From positions 179,979 to 243,978 of the forward strand of contig JBAZWG010000001.1 in assembly GCA_041660505.1 (NCBI GenBank): a DNA stretch of 64,000 nucleotides, given 5' to 3'. Positions 4,530 through 62,579 of this stretch are shown here, piece after piece. Each line of letters starts with the position of its first letter. Within the stretch, counting starts at the first letter, position 1. The notes under the pieces were generated by a model. The model made no database searches. It was not told where the DNA came from and saw nothing but the letters and a program-made list of their open reading frames with translations. The translations under genes were made by a program, and so were the position numbers. The stretch is from Minisyncoccota bacterium. GTDB lineage: Bacteria > Patescibacteriota > Minisyncoccia > Phycocordibacterales > JACRKE01.

Positions 4530-4559
4530 ATCGCAATTATCTCACAGTTTCCCATTTTT

Positions 4560-4689: not shown

Positions 4690-4780
4690 AGAATCAATAA
4701 TTACTGTCCTTTGCCCCTTCCTTTGGGAAGTAAGCGGACAGTCCCTCCTTGACCGATTAATCACCGACAAGGAGGACAGT
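4690..4780 (+). promoter_or_regulatory. structured 5' leader with anti-SD/SD pairing
   Basis: GGACAGUCCCUCCUUG ... CAAGGAGGACAGU, where CCUCCUU is complementary to the SD AAGGAGG placed 6 nt before the ATG at 4781. Additional hairpins CUUCCUUUGGGAAG and ACUGUCC/GGACAGU are present. Confidence 0.4.
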
Positions 4781-5032: not shown

Positions 5033-5050
5033 TCTGCTCGTACAGGAACC

Positions 5051-5099
5051 CCTTTGGTTAAAACCAATGCGTCAAGGGTTCCTTTTTATTTGTCCGGAT
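5051..5099 (+). terminator. rho-independent terminator
   Basis: AGGAACCCUUUGG...CAAGGGUUCCU hairpin followed by UUUUUAUUU. Confidence 0.6.
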
Positions 5100-5158
5100 A
5101 ACAGACTAATCGCACATTCCCCTTTTTAAAAGGTTTAACCTTCTTTCTATGGTCGCTT

Positions 5159-5656: not shown

Positions 5657-5692
5657 ACTATTTCAGATGACGAGTGTCAGTCGGTGCCACTT

Positions 5693-5711
5693 CTAGAAGG
5701 CCTCGCCTTCT
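5693..5711. repeat. REP-like hairpin copy 3
   Basis: TAGAAGGCCTCGCCTTCTA, identical to copy 1. Confidence 0.8.
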
Positions 5712-5713
5712 AA

Positions 5714-14386: not shown

Positions 14387-14413
14387 GCTTTCGGCGACCC
14401 AAGTTTCAATCTG

Positions 14414-14500
14414 CGGATCGGGTGGGATTCGAACCCACGAGACTATTGCTAGTCTGGCAGTTTAGTAAACTGCTGCCTTCAACCACTCGGCCACCGATCC
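14414..14500 (-). tRNA. type-II (long variable arm) tRNA, Ser-like, nominal anticodon ACU
   Basis: Reverse complement GGAUCGG-UG-GCCGAGUGGUUGAAGGC-A-GCAGU-UUACUAA-ACUGC-CAGACUAGCAAUAGUCUCG-GUGGGUUCGAAUCCCAC-CCGAUCC-G. The acceptor pairs fully. The D-arm is Ser-like. The anticodon loop UUACUAA gives ACU in place of the usual GCU. Confidence 0.7.
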
Positions 14501-14573
14501 TTGCGAATTACCAGACTATCACATTTACCGGCTAGAAAAAAGGTGGAAATAATGCTAGATTTATCAAGTATTT

Positions 14574-14662
14574 GGAGCCGTGGTGGAGTGGTCTAACATA
14601 CCTCTTTGCTAAAGAGGCGGCCGGGTAAAACTGGCCCGCGAGTTCGAATCTCGCCGGCTCCG
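14574..14662 (+). tRNA. tRNA-Ser (anticodon GCU)
   Basis: GGAGCCG-UG-GUGGAGUGGUCUAACAU-A-CCUCU-UUGCUAA-AGAGG-CGGCCGGGUAAAACUGGCCCG-CGAGUUCGAAUCUCG-CCGGCUCC-G. Type II with a long variable arm. Confidence 0.9.
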
Positions 14663-14698
14663 TTTGTAAAATTTTATTAATCTTTATATAATACGTTC

Positions 14699-15187: not shown

Positions 15188-15593
15188 AACACTTCTTAAC
15201 CCTCCCGGGTTCCCGGGTGCTACCAGCGCTTTCTCTCACGGCGTCAAGATAGACTTGAACGACGCGGAGATAATATTCGTCACCGGTCAGGTGGCGATAG
15301 ACGAGCAAGGCAATGTGCTCTTTGCCGACAGTATCGCGAAGCAAACAGAATTTGTTTTCGAGAATATAAAGAAAATTCTGGCCGAAGGCGGAGCCTTGCT
15401 TGATGATATAGTGAAAGTGACTATTTACTTAACCCATCTGCACGCCGCAACATTCGCCGAGGTTGCCGCCGTGCGTAATAGATATCTCGCTAATGCAAAA
15501 GCCGCGAGCACTCTTGTAGGAGTGGCAAAGCTGGCCAAAGACGCCTGCCACGTCGAGATTGACGCAATAGCGGTGAAGAAAAAGATTATCTAG
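15180..15593 (+). CDS. RidA/YjgF/TdcF family reactive-intermediate deaminase
   Basis: 137 aa with family motifs IIFVTGQVAID and VKVTIYLT...AAVRNRY. It overlaps the upstream GAF gene by 8 nt. Confidence 0.8.
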   Translation: MPKTLLNPPGFPGATSAFSHGVKIDLNDAEIIFVTGQVAIDEQGNVLFADSIAKQTEFVFENIKKILAEGGALLDDIVKVTIYLTHLHAATFAEVAAVRNRYLANAKAASTLVGVAKLAKDACHVEIDAIAVKKKII

Positions 15594-18500: not shown

Positions 18501-20617
18501 CTTGAGTTATTAGACGTAATTGTTATTGGCGCGAGCACTGGCGCGGACTTGTCCATCGTAACGCTTGATGAATTGGTTGTGCTTGTGACAGCAGAAGCAA
18601 CATTGCCAGCCGTATCTGTCGCGGTGATGCTGAACGGTATTGCAATTTCCGGATCGTCAGCCGTCATTGTGGTCGAGGCCGTCCAAGACGTGCCGGAGCC
18701 GGTGATGTTCGCACCTCTGCCGGCGATAGTAACAGTAGGGGAAACTATCGCTTCGTTCGCGACGATTGTAAGCGTAACAATACTGCCGATGCCGGCCTTA
18801 GTGGTATCAGAATTGTTTGAAGCTATCGTAACTGTGTCGAGCGTGGGGGGATTGAAGTCGGCATCGGCAGTGGCAGCAGCTGCACCAGTAGAACCATTGT
18901 GACTGCCACCGCTAGTACCGCTACCGCCTGCGGCCGCGACACTCCCGCTCCACGAACCACCACTTGAATAATGAACTGCAACTATTCCTCCCCCGCCACC
19001 ACCGCTAACATTATTAGTCGTGCCCGCACCGCCGGTCGCCGTTATACTGCCAGAACCTGCGAGAGTATTTGTGTATATATAGACACCACCGCCAGCACCA
19101 CCTCCGCCAGTTTGTGAAAATTGGCCACTTGTACCATCAGAACCATTTGCGACTATAGTGCCGTTAAGTGTAAAACTGCCTGTTGCCAAAATTGAAAGAT
19201 GGCCACCGCCCGCGCCACCGCTTGCGTATCCGCCGACTTCACTTCCCGCACCTCCGGAGCCCATGTCTGTAGGGTGAGTCGCGGTATCGTAAGCGACACC
19301 TCCGCCGGCCCCATTGCCACCGTCTCCCCCTCTGCCGCCATGGCCACCTCCGTCACCTTGGACAGTCACTCCCACTCCTCCTCCGCCGGGTCCGTTGCCT
19401 ATTTGCGTGGGACTCCCTCCGGTATACCCCTTACCTGAGATGCTAATGGATCCGCCAGAATCAATTGTAACGTCTGTAATTGTCCAATCTATGTAATTTG
19501 TTTTGGCTGTGGTATTCGTCTTGTGAGTCATTAGACCGCTCGATTTTATCGTGAGAGCATCAAGGGTAATAGTGTTATCAGCGAAGCCAGTACCAACATT
19601 AGAAGATACTCCGTTGTTAGCAACAAAAATTTCACCATATGTCTCTGCGGCTGATTTTGTAAAAATAGTTCCGGCTCCGGCATCCTGACCTCCGCTGTAA
19701 TGAGTACCGCCGTATGCTTTAACGTAAGTGTCAAAGTTGGACGACGTAAACATGTTGTTCGTGGTGTAACGAATTGCAATTCTGCCACCCCCACCACCAC
19801 CGCTAGAGTTGTTCGAGCTACCCACACCTCCGTTTGCGGTGATAGTCCCCGCACCGTTCAGAGTCCCTGTGTTTATTAAAATACTTCCGCCCGCGCCACC
19901 ACCACCGGTTTGAGAAAACTGACCACCTACCGCATTGGAACCATTCGCCGAAATCGTTCCGCCGATTGTTGCCGTACCCGAAATTGTAAGGCTAATAAGA
20001 CCACCTCCTGTGCCACCGCTTGCATAACCTCCAACACCACTTCCGGAACCGCCCGATCCCATATCTGTCGGTGTAGAGGCAGAATCATAGACCGTACCTC
20101 CGGCACCACCATCTCCCTTACCGCCAAATCCTCCATGGCCACCACCGTTGCCCTGGATGTCTGCGCCTCCTACGCCGCCGCCGGGGCCGGAACCGGAAGT
20201 CAAGCCGCCACCGCCCGCATAACCCAAACCGGCCGCAGTGAGAGTGCCGTTGATGGTCGTGCTCGCGGCGGTAATATTTACACTGCCGTAACTAGCGCCG
20301 TCATACGCTTTGACAGAAACCGTGCCGGAAGGAATTGAGAACCCTGCTATCCCGCAGTGAGCGCCGGCGATAGCGATTCCCGCCGTGCCGTCCAAGTCCC
20401 ACGTGTCGCCATTGGTTGGTGTCCAGTCCTGGTCTACGCCATCTACGGCGTGATCATTCGCACATGTGTCGGCCTTACTTATAAAAGGGGTTAGTGCGAA
20501 TTTATGGATAGCGACGGCAACAACAGCCACCGCCAAGACGTGGACAAAAATATGGAATGCCGGACACCTTTCCGCATCAATAAAGTGGCGCGACAGCGTT
20601 GTTGGATATTTCGCCAT
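15590..20617 (-). CDS. giant cell-surface protein: N-terminal TM anchor, Gly-rich beta-helix-like region, ~9 tandem ~95-aa Ig-like repeats, C-terminal peptidoglycan-binding-like domain
   Basis: 1675 aa. The repeated unit is TVTISSNNSxTTLAKxxxIVTLxFTxxExIxTPxVTIAGRxAxxxGSGTxWxASTTM..GD....FSITPxDxAGNxG. Repeat units of about 285 bp are visible in the DNA at 16860-18900. GG[AS]G-rich stretches are present. The C-terminus has LLQRLLAQDKSIYKNGQVTGYFGNLTLQAVQKFQEKYGI. Confidence 0.7.
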   Translation of the reverse strand: MAKYPTTLSRHFIDAERCPAFHIFVHVLAVAVVAVAIHKFALTPFISKADTCANDHAVDGVDQDWTPTNGDTWDLDGTAGIAIAGAHCGIAGFSIPSGTVSVKAYDGASYGSVNITAASTTINGTLTAAGLGYAGGGGLTSGSGPGGGVGGADIQGNGGGHGGFGGKGDGGAGGTVYDSASTPTDMGSGGSGSGVGGYASGGTGGGLISLTISGTATIGGTISANGSNAVGGQFSQTGGGGAGGSILINTGTLNGAGTITANGGVGSSNNSSGGGGGGRIAIRYTTNNMFTSSNFDTYVKAYGGTHYSGGQDAGAGTIFTKSAAETYGEIFVANNGVSSNVGTGFADNTITLDALTIKSSGLMTHKTNTTAKTNYIDWTITDVTIDSGGSISISGKGYTGGSPTQIGNGPGGGGVGVTVQGDGGGHGGRGGDGGNGAGGGVAYDTATHPTDMGSGGAGSEVGGYASGGAGGGHLSILATGSFTLNGTIVANGSDGTSGQFSQTGGGGAGGGVYIYTNTLAGSGSITATGGAGTTNNVSGGGGGGIVAVHYSSGGSWSGSVAAAGGSGTSGGSHNGSTGAAAATADADFNPPTLDTVTIASNNSDTTKAGIGSIVTLTIVANEAIVSPTVTIAGRGANITGSGTSWTASTTMTADDPEIAIPFSITATDTAGNVASAVTSTTNSSSVTMDKSAPVLAPITITSNNSSTTRAKTDDIVTLSFTANKSIQTPVVTIDGRGANITGSGTTWQASTTMQAGDTEAVVTFSVTATDTLGNEATPVTATSNGSAVTFDKTVPTVPTVTISSSNSSTTLAKTDNVVTLAFTADESLRTPVVTIAGRSATVLGSGTTWTASTTMQSGDSETAVAFSITPTDAAGNEGSAVTAITTGLNVVFDKTVPTLSPVTISSNNTTNTLAKVADIVTLTFTSSEAIATPTVTIFGRPATVLGSGTSWTASTTMETGDTNGTVTFSATPIDMAGNSGIAVTAITSGSNVRFDKTPPAVSTVTISSNNTTNTLAKVANIVTLIFTTDENIKTPTVTIAGRAASVSGSNSSWSATQTMETGDTESAISFAITPVDLAGNVGTTALAVTSGSNVTFDKSAPTLSPVTIASNNNTTASRATTNDIVTLTFTANESITTPTVLIASRSANITGSGTSWTASTTMISGDTQQVIQFSITPTDIVGNAASAVTAITSGSGVTFDKSTPTISITTPTEGSMIATSTTPQVTTNEAATCTYSYDGADSVAFATTGGTTHTASAITGITGTAHTLTVTCNDLAGNVNTSATRNFKSLTTSGTTVTGGSEPVVFEGTSSGGVTMPSSITTLVLSESSPLSASTSLSSISGGNLTLNGSILPLGAFTSGSLVSVDLTQPQTIADKTVTVGTGFTLNSGTTGSPVVITGSAVSGTSLSIPDATSIMGPTDWDGKITPPITGSSAGTSPSGFLVGDAIQIGSADVTLIFDKAVTLTFDTVKTMVFKMAGSDTWQTLSTCAGTYSSPTDPTPFGECGISNGLQTKVLTYHFTTFGTLTAVPEVVRLASNNGPIYGWVMGLFSDAKPKVMEKVVPTVTPADSFIFLHPVISKRAQTQVRVPATIKGASSINSVLVIGSRGSSVTLLQRLLAQDKSIYKNGQVTGYFGNLTLQAVQKFQEKYGIAKRGAIGYGVVGPATRAMLVTVFGN

Positions 20618-22722: not shown

Positions 22723-22813
22723 CTATCGCACGGCACGTGCGAAACTTGCTTTATCCTACAGATTTCCGTCAATAACGCAAACAGCGGAGGTTCAACCTCC
22801 GCTGTTCTGTTGT

Positions 22814-22857
22814 CACCGAGGAGAGACCTCCGCTTTTCCGGAGGACTCACCTCGCCG
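22814..22857. repeat. ~45-nt GC-rich palindromic element (CCGAGGAGAGACCTCCG-loop-CGGAGGACTCACCTCGG family), copy 1
   Basis: Imperfect hairpin immediately 3' of groEL. Related copies are at 47953-48000, 48014-48062 and 62533-62579. Confidence 0.7.
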
Positions 22858-22907
22858 TCTTTAATTTTATTATTCCTAACTCCTATCTCCCATCTCCTAA
22901 CTCCTCT

Positions 22908-24590
<1,683 letters not shown>

Positions 24591-24607
24591 TTATTAGTTT
24601 GTAGTTT

Positions 24608-24922
24608 TTAGTTTTCAAAAACTAATGAAATACTAGACTCGGAGAGAACTAAGTACTCCTTTCCCCCGATTTTAAATTCTTCGGATCCGTATTTTGCAAA
24701 CATCACCTTCTCGCCAACCTTTACGTTCATTGGTAGGATTTTGCCATTCTCATCGCGTTTGCCCGGGCCAATGGCCACGATAACGCCCTGCTCGGCACGT
24801 TCTTTTTCTGCCGTCTCCGGTATAAAAATCCCGCTCTTCGTAAGAGCGCCTCGCTCATGTTCTGCTAGAGGCTCTACGATAACGCGATCAGCCAAAGGTC
24901 GCACGCTTAGTTTTTTTGCCAT
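24608..24922 (-). CDS. groES: co-chaperonin GroES
   Basis: Internal Met MAKKLSVRPLADRVIVEP... with the mobile loop and a roughly 100-aa length. The 32-aa N-terminal extension in the ORF track is probably spurious. Confidence 0.9.
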   Translation of the reverse strand: MAKKLSVRPLADRVIVEPLAEHERGALTKSGIFIPETAEKERAEQGVIVAIGPGKRDENGKILPMNVKVGEKVMFAKYGSEEFKIGGKEYLVLSESSISLVFEN

Positions 24923-26219: not shown

Positions 26220-26312
26220 ATTACAAAGCAGAATTGGAGAATTTAGGAATTTGAGAATTAGGGAATATTCTTAAATTCTAAAATTCTTTAATTCATAAAT
26301 TCTGTCAGAATT

Positions 26313-28121
26313 TTGATCAATTTTCATTTTTTGGAGTCTTTATCGCGCAAGTACGACGAGTTCGGAAAGGCGCTTGCTCCCAAGTCAAAAGCGGGTAAAA
26401 AAATATACGACTTCTTCGGCTATTTCTCTTTGAAAGAAAGATTGGCTTTTTATGTTCTGCTTTTAATTTTCCTCATGAGCTTCGGACTTTTGGTAAAAAA
26501 GCTTAATGATATGATTACGGTTGAGGTGCCTCTCTTCGGCGGAACACTGCGCGAGGGTATCGTGGGCATTCCGCGTTTTAGTAATCCCGTTCTGGCCTCG
26601 AGCGACGTGGATAAGGATGTGGCGAGCCTTATTTATTCCGGCCTTATGCGCGTCGGGTCAGAAGGCAAACTAATCCCCGATCTGGCAGAAAATTATTCCG
26701 TATCTCCAGACGGTCTTACATATACTTTCGTTCTTAAGAAGAATCTTGTATTCCATGACGGGAGCAAGCTCTCGAGTGCCGACGTCGCCTATACTATCAA
26801 TCAAGTTAAGAATCCGATTTTCAAAAGTCCTCGCGGAGCGGCTTGGAGCGGAATCAATATAGAAACTCCCGACGACCTAACTGTTGTGTTCCATCTCAAA
26901 TCTCCTTACGCACTCTTCCTCGAAAGTACGACGTTGGGAATACTCCCGAAAAGTTTATGGAAGAAGACGAATGACGAGACATTCCCCTATAACGAGCTTA
27001 ATCTAGCGGGCGTCGGTTCCGGACCATACAAAGTGGTGAATGTTGCAAAAAATAAAGACAGCGTACCAACAGTATTGACACTCACTGCGTTTAACTCTTT
27101 CACGCTTGCCAAGCCTTATATCAAGAACATCAAACTGTACTTCTACGCGAATGAAGAGGCACGGTCTGCCGCTTATGGAGCCGGTTATATAGACACACTC
27201 TCCGGCATCACAGCGGAGGATGTGGGGGCACTTAACACGGGCAAAGGTCACATAGTCTCATTCTATCTCCCAAGAATCTTCGCCGTGTTCTTCAATCAAA
27301 ACCAAGAATCTGCCTTCACTTACCGTGAGGTTCGCGCAGCACTCGACGCTTCGCTCGATAAAGAAGCCATTACTCGTACCGTGCTTCATGATTATGGCAA
27401 CGCGATAAACGGCACGATTCCGCCGGGTTCGTTCGGCTACGCGAGCAGTACCAATCCTATAAAAGATCAGCCGGCACGCATCGCAAGCGCCCAAGCCCTA
27501 CTGCAACAGAACGGTTGGAATAAAGTTGGCGGAGTTTACCAAAAGAAGTTTACCGGCGACCCTAAGAAAAAGAGTAGTTCGACGGTCGTCTCTCTCGCCT
27601 TCTCTATTTCTACGGCAGACACGCCGGAACTCAAGCGGACAGCAGAACTGATTCGAGACACGTGGAACAGCCTTGGCGCAAAAGTCGAGCTCAAGGTATA
27701 TGAGATCGGCGACTTGAATCAAAACGTCATTCGTCCTCGCAATTTCGATGCGTTATTCTTCGGCGAGATTGTCGGCCGCAACCCCGACCCATTCTTCTAC
27801 TGGCATTCGTCGGAACGCGCCGACCCGGGACTCAATATCGCCATGTACGCAAACCCAGCCGTTGATAAGCTTGTAGACAGCATTCGTGCCAGCGCATCCG
27901 ACAGCGACCGACTAGACAAGCTCCGCAAACTGGACACAGCAATAAAGCGCGACCAGCCGGCTTCATTCATATATGCGCCACAATACATTTATCTTATTAA
28001 TAATCGGGTGCGAGGAGTGACGCCGATGTCTCTCACGACACCCAATGAAAGATTCTCTAATATCTACACCTGGTACATCGATACCGAAAGAGTGTGGAAG
28101 ATTTTTACTAAACAGAATTAA
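26313..28121 (+). CDS. ABC transporter substrate-binding protein, family 5 (peptide/nickel)
   Basis: SBP_bac_5-like sequence throughout. The N-terminal TM anchor is reached from a TTG start. The true start is uncertain (an internal ATG at MSFGLL is possible). Confidence 0.7.
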   Translation: MINFHFLESLSRKYDEFGKALAPKSKAGKKIYDFFGYFSLKERLAFYVLLLIFLMSFGLLVKKLNDMITVEVPLFGGTLREGIVGIPRFSNPVLASSDVDKDVASLIYSGLMRVGSEGKLIPDLAENYSVSPDGLTYTFVLKKNLVFHDGSKLSSADVAYTINQVKNPIFKSPRGAAWSGINIETPDDLTVVFHLKSPYALFLESTTLGILPKSLWKKTNDETFPYNELNLAGVGSGPYKVVNVAKNKDSVPTVLTLTAFNSFTLAKPYIKNIKLYFYANEEARSAAYGAGYIDTLSGITAEDVGALNTGKGHIVSFYLPRIFAVFFNQNQESAFTYREVRAALDASLDKEAITRTVLHDYGNAINGTIPPGSFGYASSTNPIKDQPARIASAQALLQQNGWNKVGGVYQKKFTGDPKKKSSSTVVSLAFSISTADTPELKRTAELIRDTWNSLGAKVELKVYEIGDLNQNVIRPRNFDALFFGEIVGRNPDPFFYWHSSERADPGLNIAMYANPAVDKLVDSIRASASDSDRLDKLRKLDTAIKRDQPASFIYAPQYIYLINNRVRGVTPMSLTTPNERFSNIYTWYIDTERVWKIFTKQN

Positions 28122-28192
28122 AGAATTTCAGAATTTAGGAATTTAATTCATTCTTACATTCTCATATTCTTTAATTCATAAATTCCGTTAAC

Positions 28193-30196: not shown

Positions 30197-31159
30197 CTAA
30201 AGCATTTCCTGTAACTTCTGTGTATTTCCGTGCTTTAGCAACCCGAGATAGGATTGCAGGGTAGCTGGATTGTGTAGCTTTTTCTGCAAGTTTCTAAACA
30301 TCCGTTTCTTCGTCGTCGTGCGCAGTACCCGGTGATCGGGAAAATGCACCCATCCCAGGAAGTCGACGCCAGAAGCAAGTGTAGCGATAGAAACCTTGTT
30401 CGGATGCAATGAAAGCTTGAGCATTATATTCAGAAAATCAGAAATTTGGGGAATGAGTTGTTCGAGTAATGTTTTGTCATCAGAAAGAAAGACAAAATCA
30501 TCTGCATAACGAATGTAATGCTTTACTTTTAGTTTGTGTTTCACATACTGATCGAACTCGTCCATGTAAATATTCACTAAAAGTTGCGAGGTCAGATTAC
30601 CGAGCGGCAGACCGGTTTGAAAACTTGAAATTACTTTCTCAAGCAACCACTGGACGTTCTCGTCAGAAATATATTCTGCAAGAATGCTAAAAATAATCTG
30701 GTGGTTGATGTTCGCAAAGAACTTGCGTATGTCGCATTTGAGTACCCAGCAGGTACGGGTATTATTCTTGGACATCCGATGTCCAAATTCTTCAAATCGC
30801 TTGAGTGCCTTGTGAGTTCCCTTTCGTAACCGACAAGAGTATGAGTCAGATATAAAAGTCCCGTCGAAGAAGGGATAGAGTTTGCGGTAGAGCGCGTGAT
30901 GTAATAACCTGTCGCGCACCGACGCCTTATGAATATCGCGAGGCTTGGGGTCATTAATTTTGAAGTGCTCATAGTGGCCGTGCATATAGGTAAAACTTTT
31001 CAATTCTCGATGAAGAGTCAAGATATTGTGCAGTAAATGTAACTGAAAAACTTGCACGTCGGCTTTCGTCTTTTTATCTCGAACAAAGTTTTGCCACGCA
31101 AATAACAAATTCTTTACGGAAATGATCTCTTCATAGCTAGTTGTAAACTTTTTTCTCAT
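30197..31159 (-). CDS. DGR reverse transcriptase
   Basis: RT motifs in order: RPRDIHKASVRDRLLHHAL, CDIRKFFANINH, GLPLGNLTSQLLVNIYM (the DGR-type [LI]GxxxSQ signature replacing QGxxxSP) and YIRYADDFVFL. 320 aa, with no maturase or endonuclease domains. Confidence 0.85.
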   Translation of the reverse strand: MRKKFTTSYEEIISVKNLLFAWQNFVRDKKTKADVQVFQLHLLHNILTLHRELKSFTYMHGHYEHFKINDPKPRDIHKASVRDRLLHHALYRKLYPFFDGTFISDSYSCRLRKGTHKALKRFEEFGHRMSKNNTRTCWVLKCDIRKFFANINHQIIFSILAEYISDENVQWLLEKVISSFQTGLPLGNLTSQLLVNIYMDEFDQYVKHKLKVKHYIRYADDFVFLSDDKTLLEQLIPQISDFLNIMLKLSLHPNKVSIATLASGVDFLGWVHFPDHRVLRTTTKKRMFRNLQKKLHNPATLQSYLGLLKHGNTQKLQEML

Positions 31160-31202
31160 ATGGTAGCTTTTTTAATTATGCAAAATCAAAACCTTAAAAG
31201 TA

Positions 31203-31213
31203 CCCCCCCCCCC
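31203..31213. repeat. homopolymeric C11 tract (G11 on the RT strand)
   Basis: taCCCCCCCCCCCgcaac, 44-54 nt upstream of the RT ATG, in the divergent RT/avd intergenic region. Confidence 0.9.
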
Positions 31214-31281
31214 GCAACACCCTGCCGCTTATTACGAAAGTAAAAGCAGTCTATATTTTGTGGCTTCCGGTTCATAAGAAT

Positions 31282-31584
31282 ATGCCAAGGCTCGAACGAT
31301 TTGGCCTTGGCGCGACCATCGAGAAAACTTTTCTTGATCTGCTCAATACGCTTCGCAAAGCTGCCTACGCAGACACGACTCATAAGTTACCGTTGCTTGA
31401 AGAAGCGATTGACGCGGTAGACTGCTTACGTTTCTTTTTACAGCTCGCATGGGAAACCAAGACTATCTCGCACAAACATCTTGCAATCATCGGCGAAGGC
31501 ATCGAGGAAGTTGGGCGCATGATCGGCGGATGGCGAAAAGGCCTGCTTACGAAAACCTCCACAACGCGTGCGGAGGAAAGATAA
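31282..31584 (+). CDS. avd: DGR accessory variability determinant (Avd)-like four-helix-bundle protein
   Basis: ORF 31258..31584 with likely start MPRLERFGLG. Motifs LRFFLQLAW and EEVGRMIGGWRKG resemble bAvd (LRFWLRFLA / AEVGRILGSW) as recalled. The gene is on the opposite strand from the RT and TR. Confidence 0.6.
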   Translation: MPRLERFGLGATIEKTFLDLLNTLRKAAYADTTHKLPLLEEAIDAVDCLRFFLQLAWETKTISHKHLAIIGEGIEEVGRMIGGWRKGLLTKTSTTRAEER

Positions 31585-31588
31585 GGGT

Positions 31589-31693
31589 AGCGGGAGACGA
31601 CCTGATTGCCGTCGTTCCACCTGTTCGGGTTCTCGACCGAGTTCGCGTTGACGTTCCAGCCGTTGCCGGAGTTCCAGTTCGCGTTCACGACCC
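31589..31693 (-). repeat. DGR1 template repeat (TR)
   Basis: 105-nt match to 32058-32162. All 17 mismatches are T on the plus strand here (A on minus). TT doublets correspond to AAC (Asn) codons in minus sense. Confidence 0.8.
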
Positions 31694-32055
31694 AGAGAAA
31701 CAAGCGCCACGCACCGTGCAGACTGCCATCCGTGCCACTGTTCTTTGAGTTCTTTTGGAATACTCGCCGAGCTGTATCGTGTCTGGGACATTCAAAGTCC
31801 GCCAGCAATCTGCACCGATCCTCACTCTTTTTTAGAGCTTGCTGTATCCACACTTGGTGCAGGCGTACCCGCACTAATTCTCGAATACAGGGATGCGAGG
31901 CCCTCTGCACAAGCCGTAGCCGGTGCAATGGAGTGGCCTTAACTTGAGAAGCTAGCATATGTAGATAAAAAACAAAACCCCCCGATACCTGCCGCCAAAG
32001 CGACAAAGTGTCAGAGGGCTTAAGAAGAAAGAATAAGTGACCGAGGTAAACAGGA

Positions 32056-32787
32056 TCAGCGGGAGACGACCTGAAGGCCGACGCTCCACCTGAGCGGGCC
32101 CTCGACCGAGCGCGCGAGGACGTACCAGCCGTTGCCGGAGTCCCAGCCCGCGCTCACGAACCAGAGAACGCCATTTTCGTCCTCGACATACGCGATGTTC
32201 GCGTAGCCGTTGACGAGGAGCGGGCCAGTCTCTCCGCGGGGCTGCTGCAACAGCATACCCCAGAAGTGGGCTAGCTTGATGACCCGGCGAGCTTCATCGA
32301 GCTCGCTCATGATTTCGGGATCGAGTGAGGAACGGAGGAGGGTGTGGCAGCGCAGCTCGGCCTTCTCGACGTCGGTCTCGATCTTGTTCGAGAAGTTCGC
32401 CTTGAAGTTGTCGCCCAGGTAGTAGATCTGGACGGCGGCCTTCGCGGAGGTGTCGAGCTTGAAGTGCTTCTTCACTTCGAACTTGTCGTAGGACGGCACG
32501 ATGGTCGTGCCTTCGACGAGCTTGAGCCGCGGCTGCGCGGGCGGTGCGGATGGCGAGACAACCTCGGGCTTGACGACGAGCGTCTTGCCCGAGTTGATGG
32601 CTGCACACGCGTCCGCCATCTGTTCCCGCACGGACTTCTTGTCCTTGTGCGCGAGCGCCGCCTGTTGCTCAGGCGTAAGCTTGCCGAGGAGTTCGGCGGC
32701 GAGGAGGAGTCGCGCATTTGCGATCTTCCCCGCGAGGTCGTAGGACGCTCCGCGTCCTCGGGTGTCGGGCAATCCCTTTCTGGGCAT
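32056..32787 (-). CDS. DGR1 target protein (C-type-lectin-like C-terminus carrying VR)
   Basis: Start set at MPRKGLPD, with SD GGAAGGAGGTG 5 nt upstream. The C-terminus ...WFVSAGWDSGNGWYVLARSVEGPLRWSVGLQVVSR is encoded by the VR and ends at the stop. No signal peptide. Confidence 0.7.
   Translation of the reverse strand: MPRKGLPDTRGRGASYDLAGKIANARLLLAAELLGKLTPEQQAALAHKDKKSVREQMADACAAINSGKTLVVKPEVVSPSAPPAQPRLKLVEGTTIVPSYDKFEVKKHFKLDTSAKAAVQIYYLGDNFKANFSNKIETDVEKAELRCHTLLRSSLDPEIMSELDEARRVIKLAHFWGMLLQQPRGETGPLLVNGYANIAYVEDENGVLWFVSAGWDSGNGWYVLARSVEGPLRWSVGLQVVSR
32058..32162 (-). repeat. DGR1 variable repeat (VR)
   Basis: Homologous to TR1, with A/G/C at the 17 positions where TR1 has T (plus strand). 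It abuts the target stop codon. Confidence 0.8.
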
Positions 32788-32981
32788 TGGACACCTCCTT
32801 CCCACACAGCGGTGGGGTACACGGTAAATGATAGTCTTGCAACCGAGCAAGTATCATTAACCGCGATCACTTATCGGTTTTCAATATAGCGAAGCTGCCG
32901 TATAATTTAGCATACTCTTTCGATATATGTCAATAGCAGTTATCCAGAACTAATTTTGTCACCGCGCGATATAATAGAGAT

Positions 32982-41452: not shown

Positions 41453-42529
41453 CTATATCACAAGTTTATGTTGCCTCAAAACAGCTTCGACATCTTGAGA
41501 ACTTTCTGTTTGCATAAGCGCAATTTTTAGTTCTTTAGCGTGTATGTGCCCTGCCATGTACGAGCCGAAGTGTTTACGCATAACAGCAAATGGCTTTATG
41601 CCTTTATACAATTTTTCGAAGAGTCCGGCATGCTCAAGCATTACTTTCGCGCGTTCTTCATAAGGCAAATCCTCGCGCGAAACTTTCGGATTAAACAGCC
41701 ACGGATTACCGAATATGCCACGCCCGATCATTACGCCGTCTACGCAATATTTCTCGGCCATTGTTTTGGCCTCGTTCATGTTTCTTACATCACCGTTGCC
41801 GATGCATAAAATTCCGCCAGCTGGCGGATTTACCGCCGCATGAATTAATTTTGCCGCCTTGGCAATTTCATCCCAATGCGCCGGCACTTTCGACATCTCT
41901 TTCTTTGTCCGCCCGTGAATAGTGATTGCTGCCGGTTCTGACTTTATAATTTCACTTATCCATTTTTCTGTAATAATACTGTTATAACCTATGCGGGTCT
42001 TAACCGACACCGGTATCCGCCGGCTGGCGGACATCGCGCCCTCCTTCGCCGCTTCAATAACTTCACGCGCAAGTTCCGGGTTATTTATCAAATCCGCGCC
42101 GGCTTTCTGCTTATTCACAGACTTGTCCGGGCAACCCATATTGATGTCCACACCGTCGAAGCCAAGCTCACTCGCCAATTTTGCACAATAATAAAAGTTC
42201 TCCGGTTTCGAACCGAAAAACTGCGCCACTATCGGCCGCTCGCCTTCGCTGTATCGCAAATCCAAAAGTAATTTTTCTCTTGCCTTTTCATGTACAAGAC
42301 CGTCGCAGGATACTTGCTCGGTCCAAAATACAGTTTCGCCTTGAGGAAAAGGGTGTTTGGAAATGGTCTGGCCGAGGCGCAAGCCGAGGAGATCCGAGGA
42401 CCTTTCCAAAGACCTCTTTTCGAGAGGAAAACTATATTTTGCCACTATTTGCCGAAATGCCGCGTCGGTGACATCAGCCATTGGGGCCAATGCAAAGAAA
42501 GGTTTAGGTAATTTAGTCCAGAAAGACAT
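41453..42529 (-). CDS. dus: tRNA-dihydrouridine synthase
   Basis: N-terminal LAPMADVTDAAFRQI plus TIM-barrel motifs and a catalytic Cys region. The reading frame carries an approximately 34-aa insertion (SFPLEKRSLERSSDLLGLRLGQTISKHPFPQGET) encoded by a repeat element. Confidence 0.85.
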   Translation of the reverse strand: MSFWTKLPKPFFALAPMADVTDAAFRQIVAKYSFPLEKRSLERSSDLLGLRLGQTISKHPFPQGETVFWTEQVSCDGLVHEKAREKLLLDLRYSEGERPIVAQFFGSKPENFYYCAKLASELGFDGVDINMGCPDKSVNKQKAGADLINNPELAREVIEAAKEGAMSASRRIPVSVKTRIGYNSIITEKWISEIIKSEPAAITIHGRTKKEMSKVPAHWDEIAKAAKLIHAAVNPPAGGILCIGNGDVRNMNEAKTMAEKYCVDGVMIGRGIFGNPWLFNPKVSREDLPYEERAKVMLEHAGLFEKLYKGIKPFAVMRKHFGSYMAGHIHAKELKIALMQTESSQDVEAVLRQHKLVI

Positions 42530-42554
42530 AAGTTACCTATTATGCAATATTTTT

Positions 42555-42582
42555 AGCCTTTACGCTAGGTCGGTTGCGGTGA
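42555..42582. repeat. 28-bp direct repeat CCTTTACGCTAGGTCGGTTGCGGTGAGC, copy 1
   Basis: Identical to 44118-44145. Together they flank the SDR + wHTH-Cas2-like segment. Confidence 0.85.
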
Positions 42583-42611
42583 GCCAGTTTAAATTTTGGG
42601 CAGCGTATCTC

Positions 42612-43352: not shown

Positions 43353-43438
43353 CTAGGATATGTTAATTTCTTCCTTGCAAGTATAGCATCGATGTAAACA
43401 CTGTACCACAAACGAGCCAGAACATATCACTACATTTT

Positions 43439-43463
43439 TAGACGGCCGTCACGATTTGTAGTG
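43439..43463. promoter_or_regulatory. palindromic site TAGACGGCCGTC...TTGTAGTG upstream of the regulator gene
   Basis: GACGGCCGTC is self-complementary. A second copy (TTAGACGGCCGTT...TGTAGTA) lies at 44076-44100 after the gene. An extended -10 TGATATAAT sits 6 nt before the ATG, suggesting a leaderless start. Confidence 0.4.
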
Positions 43464-43493
43464 TTTTTACATCGAGTTTGATATAATTAATCT

Positions 43494-44054
43494 ATGGCGA
43501 TTAAATACACCTACAAGGGTGCTCCGGAAATTATTCTGACACTTCTCGACCAATCAAAAGACTGGGATACTCGAGAATTCCTGACCATGGCAGTCAATGA
43601 GCTACAGCCACTCATTGTTAGAAAAAAATACACCGCAAAACATTATGCCTCCCTTTCGGTAGAACGACTCTGCTCGCAGGGACTCGTCATCAAAACAGTC
43701 CGAGGCAAGAAGGAATTCTACATGATTACCAAAATGGGTGAACGTAAGCTCAGAGACACACAAAGAAAGAAGATAAAAATTACGAAGACAGTATGGGACG
43801 GTAAATGGCGAATGGTAATTTTTGATATCAAGGAGACAAAACGAAAAAAACGAAATCTTTTGCGCAGAGAGCTTAAGGCCCAGGGTTTCGAGAGACTTCA
43901 GCAAAGCGTCTGGATATATCCTTATGAATGTTACGACTACGTTGCACTGCTTAAAACATCGTTCGCGAGCAACGCAGAGATTCTGTATGCAATCGTCGAG
44001 AAGCTTGAGAATGACGAATGGCTACTTAAAAAGTTCGGGCTGAAAGGAAAATAA
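43494..44054 (+). CDS. wHTH (PadR-like) N-domain fused to a Cas2/VapD-like C-domain, hypothetical regulator
   Basis: N-terminal LSVERLCSQGLVIKTVRGKKEFYMITKMGERKL is wing-like. C-terminal KWRMVIFDIKETKRKKRNLLRRELKAQGFERLQQSVWIYP matches the Cas2 N-terminal pattern (xVLVxYDI...RRR..L...L...G.RVQ.SVF). No CRISPR array is nearby. Confidence 0.45.
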   Translation: MAIKYTYKGAPEIILTLLDQSKDWDTREFLTMAVNELQPLIVRKKYTAKHYASLSVERLCSQGLVIKTVRGKKEFYMITKMGERKLRDTQRKKIKITKTVWDGKWRMVIFDIKETKRKKRNLLRRELKAQGFERLQQSVWIYPYECYDYVALLKTSFASNAEILYAIVEKLENDEWLLKKFGLKGK

Positions 44055-44117
44055 AATACTACAAAATTAGACGGCCGTTCAAAAATGTAGTAAATCCGGG
44101 TTTCAAGAATTATGACC

Positions 44118-44145
44118 TTTACGCTAGGTCGGTTGCGGTGAGCTC
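44118..44145. repeat. 28-bp direct repeat, copy 2
   Basis: Encodes the last 8 codons and stop of the Clp-like gene (ELTATDLA*). Confidence 0.85.
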
Positions 44146-47763: not shown

Positions 47764-47952
47764 GACAAAACTCCTTTTCCAGCCAATGGGAATGATTCCC
47801 AAAAGCCCTAATTCCTCCGTGGGTGGAGACGTACTGTTCCATGTTCCCCCAGAGGCGAGTGACCGTATCAAGGTTGTTATAGCATACTGCCAACAAGAGA
47901 ACAACTCGACCCCAGTGGCTCATTTCCCACCATTTGACCCGAGGATGCTTGG

Positions 47953-48000
47953 TCGCCGAGGAGAGACCTCCGCTTTTACCGGAGGACTCACCTCGGCGAC
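47953..48000. repeat. GC-rich palindromic element, copy 2
   Basis: GTCGCCGAGGAGAGACCTCCGCTTTTACCGGAGGACTCACCTCGGCGAC. Confidence 0.7.
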
Positions 48001-48013
48001 AGAATATTAAGAC

Positions 48014-48062
48014 GGCAAGGTCTCTCCTCAAGGAGCGGAGCGGGAAGAGGTGAGTCCTTGCC
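48014..48062. repeat. GC-rich palindromic element, divergent copy 3
   Basis: GGCAAGGTCTCTCCTCAAGGAGCGGAGCGGGAAGAGGTGAGTCCTTGCC. Confidence 0.6.
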
Positions 48063-50427: not shown

Positions 50428-51214
50428 CTATATATTCAAGCGAATGAGGATGGCCTACGTATTCACCTGCAAATCGCGCGCTAGCTATTGTCGCCCGCAG
50501 ACTGTCGGCAACATCTTGCGCCGATTGATCCTTGGTGAACAATACGTACCAGCCGTTTTTTATAAACACACGGAACGAGCCCTCATCTGTTTCCTCGAAC
50601 GAACTTATGCTCAAATTCTGCGCGCTGAATAATTCAATTAATTTACGGAGTTTTTCCGGCACATCATCATTAAATACATTTGTCATCATAAGTGTTGACG
50701 ATGCCAGACGCGGCGAACGGAGCTCCGGATAAACAGGGGCCGAGAGAGCCGGCGCAGGCGCGAAAACGAGCGTGTTGCGATCGGCGTAATAGCAAATACC
50801 ATCCGGTCCGCAGACTATATAGACCGGCGTGCGCTCTGTGACCGAAATGCGCACCCCGTGTGGCGACTCGAGAGCAATAGTTGCTTTCTCGACCCAAGGC
50901 ACGGCTTTCATCAAGTCGGCAGTCATACTACCGGGCGAAGATATCATTGTATAACGAGGGAAAATAAGAAATGTGTTCTGTTTAAGTAATCCGGTGACAG
51001 TGCTCGACACTTCTGTCTCGCGCGATCCTACTACTCCTTGCACCGCCACTGTTTCGATACGTAATACCGGTAAGCGGAAGGCCAGTGCCAGTGCGAGCAA
51101 GTAAATAATAATATTAAGCAAAACCAGGCCGGCCGTGATACCGGAGCGCTTCAGCTTCTTCTGCCGCTGTTCTTTCTTGATCGCCGTAATGGCGCGCCCG
51201 CGGATAACAACCAT
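50348..51214 (-). CDS. ftsQ: cell division protein FtsQ/DivIB-like
   Basis: Basic N-terminus, one TM helix and POTRA-like and beta domains typical of FtsQ. Confidence 0.5.
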   Translation of the reverse strand: MVVIRGRAITAIKKEQRQKKLKRSGITAGLVLLNIIIYLLALALAFRLPVLRIETVAVQGVVGSRETEVSSTVTGLLKQNTFLIFPRYTMISSPGSMTADLMKAVPWVEKATIALESPHGVRISVTERTPVYIVCGPDGICYYADRNTLVFAPAPALSAPVYPELRSPRLASSTLMMTNVFNDDVPEKLRKLIELFSAQNLSISSFEETDEGSFRVFIKNGWYVLFTKDQSAQDVADSLRATIASARFAGEYVGHPHSLEYIDVRLGDKVFYKFKGTGSNATTTSAHN

Positions 51215-52473
51215 TACTTGATTGTATCAAATCCGGTGTACTTTCGTAAAACTTCCGGAATGTTGATACTGCCGTCGGCTTGCTGATAGTTCTCCACAAG
51301 CGAGACCAATATGCGCGGAGTCGGGATGGCCGTGCAGTTCAATGAATGCGCGTATTTAAGTTTGCCTTCTTGGTCGCGGTATTTGATATTCAACCGTCTG
51401 GTCTGGAAATCGTGGAAGTATGACGCGGAGCTTATCTCGCGATATTTCTGCTCCATCGGGACCCAGAGCTCGACGTCATATTTTTTAACTTGGCCGAGGC
51501 CGAGGTCACCACCACAGTTAACTACTGTGTGATACGGAATACCGAGAAGCTCGATAAACTCTTCCGTATTTCTGTTCAATTCTTCATGATACCTGACCGA
51601 CGCTTCATGATTCGCCTCACAGAGAATCACTTGCTCCCATTTATAAAATTCATGCACGCGAATGAGACCCTTCACGTCCTTACTATGACTCCCCGCTTCC
51701 CTACGAAAGCATGGCGAGAATGATATGCATTTCTTGGGTTTGGAAAGGTCGATGACTTCATTCATGAAATATCCCATCGTGCCCACCTCTGCCGTGCCGG
51801 CAAGGAAGTTGCCGTCCTGCGTCTTGTACAAATCCTCTTCTCCTTGCGGGAGAAATCCTGTACCGAGCAATGCTTCGCGCTTAACGAGTGACGGGATTAT
51901 CATCGGCGAGAAACCTTTTTCGCTGAAGAATTTAAGTGCCAACTGCCAGATTGCCAGCGACAGATTGACTCCGGCATTCTTGAGCACATACCCGCGGAAG
52001 CCCGCGATCTTCACCCCGCGGTCGATGTCGAGCATATCCAACTTCTCCATTATCTCGATGTGGCTTTTAGGCGTGAATTCGAATTTGGTCTTTTCTCCCC
52101 AGACCTTCGTCTCCACATTCTGCTCGTCGCTCTCGCCCTCCGGTACGGAGATATCCGGCACGTTCGGTACTTCTAGCATCAACGTGTGCCATTCTTTCAT
52201 TATTTCGCGCAACTCTTCTTCCTTTTTCTGAAGAGTTTCTTTGAGTACCTTCATTTCTGCAATAAGCCCTTCGCGGACTCCACCGTCAGTCGCCCCTGCC
52301 ACCAAGGTGGACGTGGCATTCTGCTTCTCGCGCATACCCTCGACTTCGCGGAGCAAAGCAAGCCGTTTATCGTCGGCAGTGATTAATTTCTCAAGATCCA
52401 ATTTGACGCGTTTCTTCCGCGCCGCCTCCTTTATCAAGTCCGCATTTTCGCGGATAAATTTAATGTCTAACAT
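51214..52473 (-). CDS. serS: serine--tRNA ligase
   Basis: N-terminal coiled-coil arm and class II motifs (FRRE, GYRG...E). 419 aa. Confidence 0.9.
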   Translation of the reverse strand: MLDIKFIRENADLIKEAARKKRVKLDLEKLITADDKRLALLREVEGMREKQNATSTLVAGATDGGVREGLIAEMKVLKETLQKKEEELREIMKEWHTLMLEVPNVPDISVPEGESDEQNVETKVWGEKTKFEFTPKSHIEIMEKLDMLDIDRGVKIAGFRGYVLKNAGVNLSLAIWQLALKFFSEKGFSPMIIPSLVKREALLGTGFLPQGEEDLYKTQDGNFLAGTAEVGTMGYFMNEVIDLSKPKKCISFSPCFRREAGSHSKDVKGLIRVHEFYKWEQVILCEANHEASVRYHEELNRNTEEFIELLGIPYHTVVNCGGDLGLGQVKKYDVELWVPMEQKYREISSASYFHDFQTRRLNIKYRDQEGKLKYAHSLNCTAIPTPRILVSLVENYQQADGSINIPEVLRKYTGFDTIK

Positions 52474-52565
52474 GACTAGTTTTTAGTTGGTAGTTTGTAG
52501 TTTTTAGGAAAGCGAATACAAGACACACTATACCAAAATATGCGCCCGATGTGTAGTGCATTTTG

Positions 52566-53143: not shown

Positions 53144-54139
53144 TTAGCCAATTGTTTTTTGTATGCCATGTCCATTGCAATGTTTGAGTAGCCCGACATA
53201 TGACTGTATTACATCAGGATTATATTCTTTTCCTACTATATTCCGAAACATTCGTTTTTTAGTCTTTGTTCGCAAAATGCGATGATTTGGAAACTGCACA
53301 TAACCGAGAAAATCAATTCCTTGCCGTAGTTTAGAAATCGAAACTTTTTTCGGATGAAGTGAGAGCTTTAGTTTTTCTTGCAAAAAAACGTTGACACGAG
53401 GCAATAAAGCCTCAAGCTCTGTATGACTTTGTGAAAGTATAACGAAATCATCGCAGTAACGAATGTAGTACTTTTGTTTAAGGATATGTTTTACGAACTG
53501 ATCCAGCTCATTCAGGTACACATTGGCAAACAGTTGGCTCGTCACATTGCCGAGCGGTATTGCCTTGCCTTGTATTTTTTCAAAACTGCCGATGATTTTT
53601 TTGATTAGCCACTTAGTATCTTCTCCGTGGATAACATGAGACAGTAGTCTAAGCAAAATTTCGTGATCGATAGTATCGAAAAACTTGCGAATATCGCATT
53701 TGAGCACATACGCGAGCTGATTATTATTCGCACTAACTCTTCGGCCGAACGCATGCAGTCGCTCGACTCCCGCATGCGTTCCCTTGCGAAACCGGCATGA
53801 GTAGGAGTCGAAGATAAAATGCTGATCGAATTGGTGATACAAGACTCGGAAAATTGCTTGGTGTAGTACGCGATCAAAGACCGTTGCTTTGTGGATGTGC
53901 CGGAGTTTCGGATCGCGGACGTAGAACGCTTCATACCGGCCGGTCTCGTATGTTTTGTTTTTTAGCTGTTCGTGGAGCAAAAACAGATTATCTTCGAGTC
54001 GGAATTCAAATTCCTGAACGTCTTGCTTTTTCGTCTTGCCTCGTTTAAACTCGCGCCATGCGGCAAATAGATTTTCGAGTGAAATAATCCGTTCAAATAC
54101 ATGATCGAAAATTCCACTAATAAGACCCCCCCCCGGCAC
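53144..54139 (-). CDS. DGR reverse transcriptase (paralog)
   Basis: Motifs CDIRKFFDTIDH, AIPLGNVTSQLFANVYL (the [LI]GxxxSQ signature) and YIRYCDDFVIL. The GTG start is immediately followed by an in-frame G9 tract encoding PGGG. Confidence 0.85.
   Translation of the reverse strand: MPGGGLISGIFDHVFERIISLENLFAAWREFKRGKTKKQDVQEFEFRLEDNLFLLHEQLKNKTYETGRYEAFYVRDPKLRHIHKATVFDRVLHQAIFRVLYHQFDQHFIFDSYSCRFRKGTHAGVERLHAFGRRVSANNNQLAYVLKCDIRKFFDTIDHEILLRLLSHVIHGEDTKWLIKKIIGSFEKIQGKAIPLGNVTSQLFANVYLNELDQFVKHILKQKYYIRYCDDFVILSQSHTELEALLPRVNVFLQEKLKLSLHPKKVSISKLRQGIDFLGYVQFPNHRILRTKTKKRMFRNIVGKEYNPDVIQSYVGLLKHCNGHGIQKTIG
54126..54134. repeat. homopolymeric C9 tract (G9 on the RT strand) at the RT2 5' end
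   Basis: agaCCCCCCCCCgg, located in codons 2-5 of the RT2 ORF as called and 70 nt from the avd2 ATG. Confidence 0.9.
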
Positions 54140-54206
54140 TCTCCAAATCCCCTTGGTTCATAAGATTCGTGAAGTATATCGGAGTTTATATATTGTCGGC
54201 AAGCGG

Positions 54207-54491
54207 ATGCCGAAGCGAGATAGGTTCGGAATATACCAACAGCTCGAGACGTTAGTCTTGCTCTGTCTGCGGATTGCTATTACGGCCGCCTTATCAAAAC
54301 CGGAACAAAAGCCTCCTTTCATAACACGCTTGCGTATTGAAATTGAAGTATGCAAACAGCTTATCCGCGTGGCACACGAATTGGGCAGTATTGAGCAGAA
54401 AGATTATTTGATGTTATCAGAATTCCTTATCGAATGTTCCAAGATGTCCTATAAGTGGCTTGAGTCTCTAACCAAAAAGGAGCCGCAGTAA
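54207..54491 (+). CDS. avd: Avd-like four-helix-bundle protein (paralog)
   Basis: ORF 54153..54491 (TTG) with likely start MPKRDRFGIY, paralleling avd1 MPRLERFGLG. It is divergent from RT2. Confidence 0.6.
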   Translation: MPKRDRFGIYQQLETLVLLCLRIAITAALSKPEQKPPFITRLRIEIEVCKQLIRVAHELGSIEQKDYLMLSEFLIECSKMSYKWLESLTKKEPQ

Positions 54492-62484: not shown

Positions 62485-62532
62485 GTAATTAGAAAATCCT
62501 AACATAATATTAGGATTTTCGGAAGCCTTTTT

Positions 62533-62579
62533 GTCGCCGAGGTGAGACCTCCGCCCTTGCTGGAGGACTCACCTCGGCG
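62533..62579. repeat. GC-rich palindromic element, copy 4
   Basis: GTCGCCGAGGTGAGACCTCCGCCCTTGCTGGAGGACTCACCTCGGCG. Confidence 0.7.

Follow-up and report, generated by a model that had tools for sequence, protein, structure and literature searches.

Background

The best-matching described protein, in sequence as well as in structure, is PaaX of Escherichia coli W (Protein Data Bank entry 8a39), whose winged helix-turn-helix (wHTH) at the N-terminus is followed by a Cas2-like middle domain (PF20803). E. coli PaaX recognises TGATTC-N27-GAATCA and represses transcription from Px, its own promoter, through steric hindrance of RNA polymerase, and its middle domain has been described as a dimerisation motif (PMC9493321). 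The gene studied here encodes a 186-amino-acid (aa) protein of the same layout, a short PaaX-family protein, and lies at positions 43494-44054 (+ strand; ATG start, TAA stop) of a 64,000-nt stretch of contig JBAZWG010000001.1 (GenBank assembly GCA_041660505.1, Minisyncoccota bacterium, Patescibacteriota), called the window below, which has a GC content of 49%. Two palindromes bracket this gene, one over its predicted promoter and one directly after its stop codon, and locus-specific versions of the same bracket recur in a large family of relatives. Judging from sequence comparisons, the protein is probably, although by no means certainly, an autorepressor whose two operators bracket its own gene.

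The resemblance to PaaX appears to extend to the site: in both cases the 6-bp boxes are inverted, are separated by over two turns of the helix (N27 in PaaX and N22 in the window), and overlie the gene's own promoter, which in the window is a predicted one. Unlike PaaX, the window protein is ~130 residues shorter, lacks the C-terminal five-helix (phenylacetyl-CoA) effector domain, and retains a Cas2-type Asp that E. coli PaaX has lost. Moreover, no paa genes were found near the window gene, which is accompanied instead by genes for an SDR protein, Dus and a ClpB-like ATPase, or at about 75 related loci, and neither a second site after the stop codon nor the conserved CGRYCG centre of the family sites has been reported for PaaX. 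Rv0674 (3kfw) and a PaaX-like protein of Jannaschia (3l09) also combine a wHTH with a Cas2-like middle domain and are whole-protein structural relatives; both differ from the window protein in having an additional helical domain at the C-terminus and no F-D motif (F110-D111 in the window protein).

The two halves of the protein have further relatives of their own. PadR-family regulators and AspA, the centromere-binding protein of pNOB8, bind palindromic DNA as dimers. Their winged helices and that of LmrR superpose on the N-terminal domain of the window protein, which, unlike the PadR family, presumably dimerises through its Cas2-like domain rather than through a C-terminal helix. Cas2 proteins (SSO8090, 3exc; Streptococcus pyogenes, 5zyf; Bacillus halodurans, 4es2) share a ferredoxin-like fold with the C-terminal half over ~75-85 residues (template modelling (TM) scores 0.5-0.7, 15-27% identity), as well as the Asp of the beta1 '[FY]D[IV]' motif and a 'QxSV[WF]' motif. 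VapD, a type II toxin ribonuclease (Helicobacter pylori HP0315, 3ui3; Haemophilus influenzae, 6zi1), likewise represents a Cas2-like fold outside CRISPR; unlike vapD, the window gene has no VapX-like antitoxin neighbour or any small partner open reading frame (ORF), and a wHTH fusion has not been reported among the VapD fusions examined (PMC11980593).

A short PaaX-family protein with a Cas2-like domain

Residues ~10-93 (43521-43772, + strand) form a PadR-like wHTH according to the secondary structure of the model, Foldseek and the family profile, with helices at residues 10-20 and 26-40, a recognition helix at 48-61, a beta wing at 65-78, and a linker helix at 80-93. The Cas2-like domain (43791-44051, + strand) was identified by Pfam, structure matches and alignment. 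It contains six residues that are invariant in the family (W101, D102, F110, D111, R120 and S138), of which D111 (codon 43824-43826) aligns with the beta1 Asp of Cas2 SSO8090. The top Pfam match was PF20803, 'PaaX protein central Cas2-like domain' (PaaX_M), at residues 100-163, where it scored 71.4 bits (cutoff 24; E=6.9e-20). Pfam CRISPR_Cas2 (PF09827) matched residues 105-141 over the first ~35 model positions only (24.4 bits, cutoff 23.8), and the NCBIfam cas2 model TIGR01573 matched at only positions 3-38 of 96 (27.8 bits, cutoff 24.5). The NCBIfam PaaX model TIGR02277 scored 56.2 bits, below its equivalog cutoff of 264.55, with positions 40-139 of 279 covered. Pfam PadR gave no match to the protein at E<=10, and Pfam gave no match to PaaX_C.

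An AlphaFold model built from 61 homologs reached a predicted local distance difference test (pLDDT) value of 91.2, and it contained no extra helical domain after the Cas2-like fold. In the Foldseek ranking of the whole protein against the PDB, E. coli PaaX was at the top (E=7.5e-7); Rv0674 and the Jannaschia PaaX-like protein came next. The N-terminal half grouped with the winged helices of PadR, LmrR, AspA and MarR, and AspA was also matched by the family profile at E=3e-4. When the C-terminal 92 residues (95-186) were modelled alone (pLDDT 93.7), the top 50 PDB matches were nearly all Cas2 (3exc, 5zyf, 2ivy, 4es2 and others), VapD (3ui3, 6zi1) or PaaX, with TM-scores of 0.5-0.7. The models thus bear out both halves of the initial annotation of this gene, which had read a PadR-type winged helix and, from the peptide KWRMVIFDIKETKRKKRNLLRRELKAQGFERLQQSVWIYPYE that the ORF indeed contains, a Cas2/VapD fold: as modelled, the protein combines a PadR-type winged helix with a complete Cas2/VapD fold in one chain. 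The initial annotation had further suggested an orphan Cas2 fold recruited outside CRISPR. The lack of CRISPR context stands (see below), but the combination of a wHTH and a Cas2-like domain is an already catalogued PaaX-family architecture present in thousands of proteins of the candidate phyla radiation (CPR, Patescibacteria) rather than a new recruitment of Cas2. The protein is a truncated member of the PaaX family, probably a DNA-binding regulator, and it is not a PaaX ortholog, because it scores below the equivalog cutoff, lacks the C-terminal effector domain, and has no paa genes nearby.

The family profile was searched against 1.84 billion cluster representatives and matched 7,257 of them at E<=1e-3 and 1,507 at E<=1e-30, the best matches being nearly all 175-200 aa long. 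The family comprises at least 1,500 clusters at 50% identity and is almost entirely confined to Patescibacteria/CPR. A pattern scan of species-representative genomes yielded at least 586 confirmed relatives; the best 80 loci among these came almost all from Patescibacteria, with more than one paralog in several genomes; a 652-kb Moranbacteria contig, for example, has two. No family member was found on viral contigs. PF20803 was present in 71 of 71 database homologs, and the core motif of the family was WDGKWRMVIFDIPExxRxxRxxLRxxLKxxGFxxLQxSVWVYPY, with F110-D111 invariant in 61 of 61 sequences. The F-D motif was also kept in 255-aa relatives with an extra C-terminal domain. Because these longer PaaX_M relatives retain it, D111 is, on alignment evidence, a trait of the clade and not specific evidence for nuclease activity. 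Between the nuclease and the regulator that the initial annotation had offered as options, the regulator is the better one.

Two palindromes bracket the window gene

The upstream palindrome (43429-43462; ACTACA TTTTTA GACGGCCGTC ACGATT TGTAGT), which we propose as operator O1 from repeat analysis, chance expectation, the ortholog and the family pattern, has its centre 48 bp before the ATG, and its right arm covers the -35 position of the predicted promoter. The downstream palindrome (44058-44091; ACTACA AAATTA GACGGCCGT TCAAAAA TGTAGT), the proposed auxiliary operator O2, starts 4 nt past the stop codon. Both are 34-nt composites and align best as inverted copies (39 nt, 82% complementary). 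The pattern ACTACA-N18-26-TGTAGT occurred twice in the 64 kb, against 0.03 occurrences expected by chance, and both occurrences flank the regulator gene. The putative promoter, recognised by reading the sequence, consists of the extended -10-like element TGATATAAT (43479-43487, + strand), which ends 6 nt before the ATG and would give a leaderless mRNA. No Shine-Dalgarno motif precedes the gene, and a consensus promoter scanner made no call at TGATATAAT, the -35 match being absent. When folded as RNA, the two palindromes formed weak hairpins (dG -11.9 and -6.8, respectively).

An ortholog with 82% protein identity was found on groundwater contigs (L001-L004). DNA homology to it spans exactly 43428-44095, and thus both palindromes, and resumes in the ClpB-like gene. 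The three boxes of the palindromes have been preserved while their spacers have diverged, as would be expected if a protein contacts the boxes. The repeats that belong to the gene are these two flanking palindromes, which the initial annotation had missed.

A metagenome scan for the window palindrome, in a collection that did not include the window's own contig, returned only the orthologs and one solo palindrome. This solo copy, GACTACACTTTTAGACGGCCGTCTAAAAGTGTAGTC, is a perfect palindrome with the same boxes as the window sites and lies near rpsU on an unrelated metagenome contig (L088 7764-7797 / L091 7006-7039) on which no family gene was found. It may be a chance occurrence or a site for a regulator encoded elsewhere.

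The palindrome bracket across the family

For each gene, the 170 nt upstream were compared with the 150 nt downstream. A strong match between the two was found for 58 of 81 family genes (72%), compared with 5 of 492 other non-adjacent genes at the same loci (1.0%; Fisher p=2.7e-54). The family sites are locus-specific palindromes of 34-40 bp, one over the promoter and one just past the stop codon. The centre of the upstream site usually lies 17-60 bp ahead of the start codon. The position of the downstream site keeps to the regulator's stop codon (median +38, interquartile range 23-58) and not to the next gene (median 121 bp, range 11-559), with 18 of 49 next genes convergent. In 38 of 47 loci, the locus-specific site was found exactly twice within +-6 kb; one locus (L085) had five copies of its site.

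Symmetry extends over ~+-18-20 bp and is weaker in the zone from -8 to -5. Most loci have RCGRYCGY as the centre and a minority have CTATAG, and the centre type is not bound to clade. Between positions -17 and -10 the outer arms show 83-94% self-complementarity, and their sequences are unrelated between loci, with arm identity dropping to background below 50% protein identity. Identity between the two copies within a locus exceeded the orthologous identity between loci in 33 of 39 related pairs (0.75 vs 0.61), and on this sequence evidence the two copies in one locus co-evolve. We did not find the family-wide double palindrome in a literature search, nor any paper linking PaaX to Cas2 or Patescibacteria; measured against the literature searched, the bracket is thus new, as are the conserved centre and the co-evolving arms.

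Shine-Dalgarno motifs precede only 9% of genes in these genomes, and a -10 box whose end lies 4-10 nt ahead of the start codon was found in 19% of all genes and 32% of family genes (p=0.008). Because -10 boxes near the start codon are common and Shine-Dalgarno motifs are rare, leaderless transcription is likely in these genomes, in which case the upstream palindrome would overlap the core promoter (-35/-10 region).

At one locus (L032 243-2588), three paralogous genes in tandem, which encode multi-pass membrane proteins of ~132 aa, lie upstream of the regulator with a unit spacing of 572-596 bp. The 40-bp palindrome of the regulator also follows each of these three genes, and the copy past the regulator is inverted.

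Probable autorepression and alternative explanations

Under autorepression, the Cas2-fold domain would most likely be the dimerisation core, holding the two winged helices far apart as in PaaX; widely spaced boxes would fit such a dimer, because the 6-bp inverted boxes lie more than two helical turns from each other. The dimer is predicted to bind the outer boxes ACTACA and TGTAGT, 22 bp apart with GACGGCCGTC at the centre. Occupation of O1 would block RNA polymerase, comparable to PaaX at the Px promoter, and so repress the gene's own transcription, in this case by a protein without the effector-binding C-terminal domain of PaaX. O2 may act as an auxiliary operator closing a loop of ~630 bp, or as a roadblock insulating the unit from neighbouring transcription; its location is as close as a 40-bp palindrome can sit without entering the coding sequence.

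Several observations weigh against this reading. Similarity between arms correlated with similarity of the wHTH and of the Cas2-like domain to about the same extent (Spearman all ~0.15-0.2), so that neither domain tracked the arms better, and the residues that best separated loci with CGRYCG centres from those with CTATAG centres scored only at the 95th percentile of permutations, so that no residue told the two kinds of locus apart. Many loci form near-perfect hairpins of 16-19 bp (RNA dG -19 to -27 kcal/mol, z -6 to -8), and their retention while arms are unrelated below 50% protein identity would also fit selection for a hairpin or cruciform over selection for duplex sequence. A purely structural role leaves the invariant Asp at the metal-binding position of Cas2 unexplained, and PaaX is not known to have a site directly behind its own stop codon; the role given to that site here is a guess. 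Finally, 57 of 75 relatives carry a transmembrane-like N-terminal helix, which is unusual for a soluble repressor, whereas the subclade of the window protein is polar there. Such helices (e.g., IILMTVAAAGILAIAILAP) were called at a 19-aa Kyte-Doolittle mean of >=1.6 (L009-L087, P0006-P0065, family alignment A1), and the polar N-terminus of the window protein recurs in L001, L005 and L008, which are closest to it. Judged from this hydrophobicity, most family members may be membrane-anchored.

Some of these points favour a role of the palindromes as RNA or single-strand hairpins or as DNA cruciforms, in which they would stabilise or terminate mRNA, or in which the CGRYCG loop would be bound by an RRM-like Cas2-fold domain in post-transcriptional autoregulation. 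The near-perfect stems with a conserved centre of 4-6 nt would then be expected, as would stems that differ freely between loci yet remain self-complementary and a downstream copy placed where a 3'-end hairpin would be; the Cas2/VapD fold is also common to known RNases and RNA binders. We nevertheless consider this explanation unlikely, though worth keeping in mind. The excess of G.U over A.C on the sense strand (66 vs 48) was not significant, symmetry dips at -8 to -5, beside the supposed loop-closing pairs, and the family sites showed no enrichment of T-runs after them, which rules out canonical intrinsic terminators. If transcripts are leaderless, the upstream copy would not be co-transcribed with the gene; the window sites fold poorly and still have conserved boxes in the ortholog; and the identity of the two copies per locus is not explained by selection for hairpins alone. 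The invariant Asp would instead suit an active metal-dependent nuclease aimed by the wHTH, either site-specific or toxin-like (VapD-type with its own autoregulator), cutting at or near the palindrome centre or cutting RNA. In line with this, F110-D111 is invariant with D111 aligned to the Cas2 beta1 Asp, 'QxSVW' parallels 'QxSVF' of Cas2, the C-terminal domain resembles catalytically active Cas2 and VapD structures, and the gene has no functional partner and changing neighbours, like stand-alone defence or toxin genes. This, too, is improbable in our view, as the F-D motif occurs in the longer PaaX-like relatives with a C-terminal domain, the domain has been described as the dimerisation motif within the PaaX family (PMC9493321), no antitoxin-like partner is present, and stable inheritance beside the ClpB-like gene across ~30% DNA divergence argues against self-cleavage of the flanking sites.

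The palindromes could also be terminal repeats recognised by the encoded protein, making palindrome-gene-palindrome a minimal selfish or mobile unit, similar to an insertion sequence or a miniature inverted-repeat transposable element in its flanking inverted copies. The sites are tight on the gene at both ends, element-specific and co-evolving with the protein, the promoter lies under the upstream repeat, a feature of many insertion sequences, the genomic contexts are unrelated with more than one divergent copy in several genomes, and DNA homology with the ortholog on the left side starts and stops at the palindromes. Against these stand the absence of target-site duplications around the palindromes, of identical multi-copy sets (the site occurs only twice per locus), of copies on viral contigs, and of a recombinase or transposase fold. 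The unit also keeps its place by the ClpB-like gene in two genomes despite an identity of only ~68-72% between their flanking genes, which indicates vertical inheritance, and the L032 and L085 sites also follow other genes or occur in 4-5 copies; mobility is consequently very improbable. Hardly better is the chance of a self-contained unit in which a DNA-targeted Cas2-fold domain performs chemistry or makes structure-specific contacts on the palindromes flanking its own gene, as a nuclease or hairpin-binding module that may be membrane-tethered in most relatives. If true, such a unit might stand for a lineage of Cas2 relatives able to recognise partly palindromic 34-40 bp repeats without Cas1, and this would be relevant to the question of how Cas2 and CRISPR repeats came to work together. 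The name of the identical NCBI entry, 'CRISPR-associated endonuclease Cas2' (on a 719-kb contig of a Candidatus Paceibacterota metagenome-assembled genome), implies a genuine adaptation Cas2 with cas1 and an array elsewhere in the genome, and both the TIGR01573 score above its cutoff and matches to the Cas2 models of PADLOC agree with it. However, the name follows from the partial match to the cas2 model, the PaaX_M match is far better, and the protein is fused to a wHTH. The window contained no CRISPR-like interspaced repeat, and among its 55 ORFs PADLOC matched Cas2 models only to the 186-aa protein. One further match, 'Cas1_IIIb', was traced to the reverse transcriptase (RT) domain of two RTs of 320-331 aa from diversity-generating retroelements (DGRs), which have RVT_1 only and no Cas1 domain, so that the earlier statement of no array or other cas gene in the window was confirmed. 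None of the 87 related loci (+-6 kb each) had a CRISPR-like array, and neighbours at about 75 of the related loci were assorted housekeeping genes with no cas family and no conserved neighbour. Nearly all family members come from CPR lineages, in which CRISPR-Cas is reported to be essentially absent (PMC4742961). An orphan Cas2 is thus effectively refuted, and a role in CRISPR adaptation can be given almost no credence.

Thousands of CPR proteins carry the name 'CRISPR-associated endonuclease Cas2' from a partial-domain match, which inflates the apparent CRISPR content of these lineages; short PaaX-family (PaaX_M) proteins would be a better name. If they are autorepressors, the family supplies its own predicted binding sites while gene regulation in CPR is almost unknown, and the protein-site pairs, readable straight from metagenomes and testable in vitro, would form a natural library of orthogonal repressor/operator pairs. 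The second site, the CGRYCG centre, the retained Cas2-type Asp and the transmembrane-like N-termini lie outside the PaaX model and may hint at a different mode of action.

Neighbouring genes and other elements in the window

A 40-nt direct repeat, 28 nt of which are perfect, was detected by repeat analysis at 42545-42584 and 44104-44143. The right copy comprises the last eight codons and a terminator-like hairpin of the ClpB-like gene, and the left copy lies between the Dus and SDR genes, 16 nt upstream of the start codon of Dus and on the downstream side of SDR. The initial annotation had placed the regulator on a cassette bounded by this repeat. The repeat is real, but the ortholog locus (Dus, a 100-aa hypothetical protein, palindrome-regulator-palindrome, ClpB-like) has no SDR gene and no 40-nt repeat, which rules out the repeat as the ends of a regulator-carrying cassette. 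Because the ortholog has the regulator without either, what varies is the slot of the SDR gene, and the repeat pair did not bring the regulator in; the repeat is probably a trace of the event by which SDR was placed here. A two-gene module of SDR and regulator was also rejected, as the adjacency occurred only in the window and in L005-7 (36% identity) and is not seen in the 82% ortholog.

A GC-rich hairpin element of ~50 nt (GTCGCCGAGGAGAGACCTCCG...CGGAGGACTCACCTCGGCG) has three copies in the window, at 22809-22858, 47949-47998 and 62530-62579, and matched no Rfam family at the gathering score. The copy at 47952-48060 is 86% identical to a relocated inverted copy in the Dus coding region of the ortholog (L001 160-269), a higher conservation than that of the flanking genes (~68%). 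Dus is also involved in a segment shared between 1917-1975 and 42346-42407 (an identical 18-mer and 23-mer), which lies just past the lepA stop codon in the former and in the N-terminal coding part of Dus in the latter. The region past lepA folds back on itself as a 36-nt inverted repeat (1904-2002), and at its shared segment Dus seems to have an additional insertion of ~30 aa.

The two RTs mentioned above belong to separate loci. The first DGR (30200-32850) consists of an RT gene (30200-31159, - strand; 320 aa with GNLTSQ...YADD motifs), a template repeat at 31589-31699 and a variable repeat at 32058-32168, the latter at the 3' end of the ORF 32059-32850 (- strand). The two 111-nt repeats differ almost only at template adenines, and Asn codons of the template become D/Y/L/R/G/S/V in the C-terminus of the target protein. 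The second, a DGR-type RT (331 aa, YCDD), lies at 53147-54488 with a divergent bAvd-like accessory ORF (PF22296, 38.8 bits against a cutoff of 40).

A second window gene between matching sequences is that of an SBP_bac_5 solute-binding protein (26313-28121), bracketed by two copies (26267-26305 and 28150-28188; 90% identical) of an AT-rich 39-nt element with an 8-nt period (ATTCTnAA). A 34-nt TAGTTTT-periodic element (24578-24611 and 52474-52507; 94% identical) lies directly upstream of the start codons of GroEL (22908-24575, - strand) and seryl-tRNA synthetase (51214-52473, - strand). The hairpin TTCTAGAAGGCCTCGCCTTCTA follows each of four consecutive minus-strand genes at 3884-5720 (3884, 4557, 5124 and 5691) and is probably a shared terminator. 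ARAGORN predicted a tRNA-Ser with the anticodon ACT (an unusual A34) at 14413-14500 (- strand; Rfam tRNA score 57.7 bits), divergently adjoining a tRNA-Ser(GCT) at 14573-14663. Six tandem repeats of ~306 nt (17118-18714; 61-80% identical to the reference copy) lie inside the ORF 15590-20617 (- strand), whose 1,675-aa product has a peptidoglycan-binding domain at its end and is probably a repetitive surface protein.

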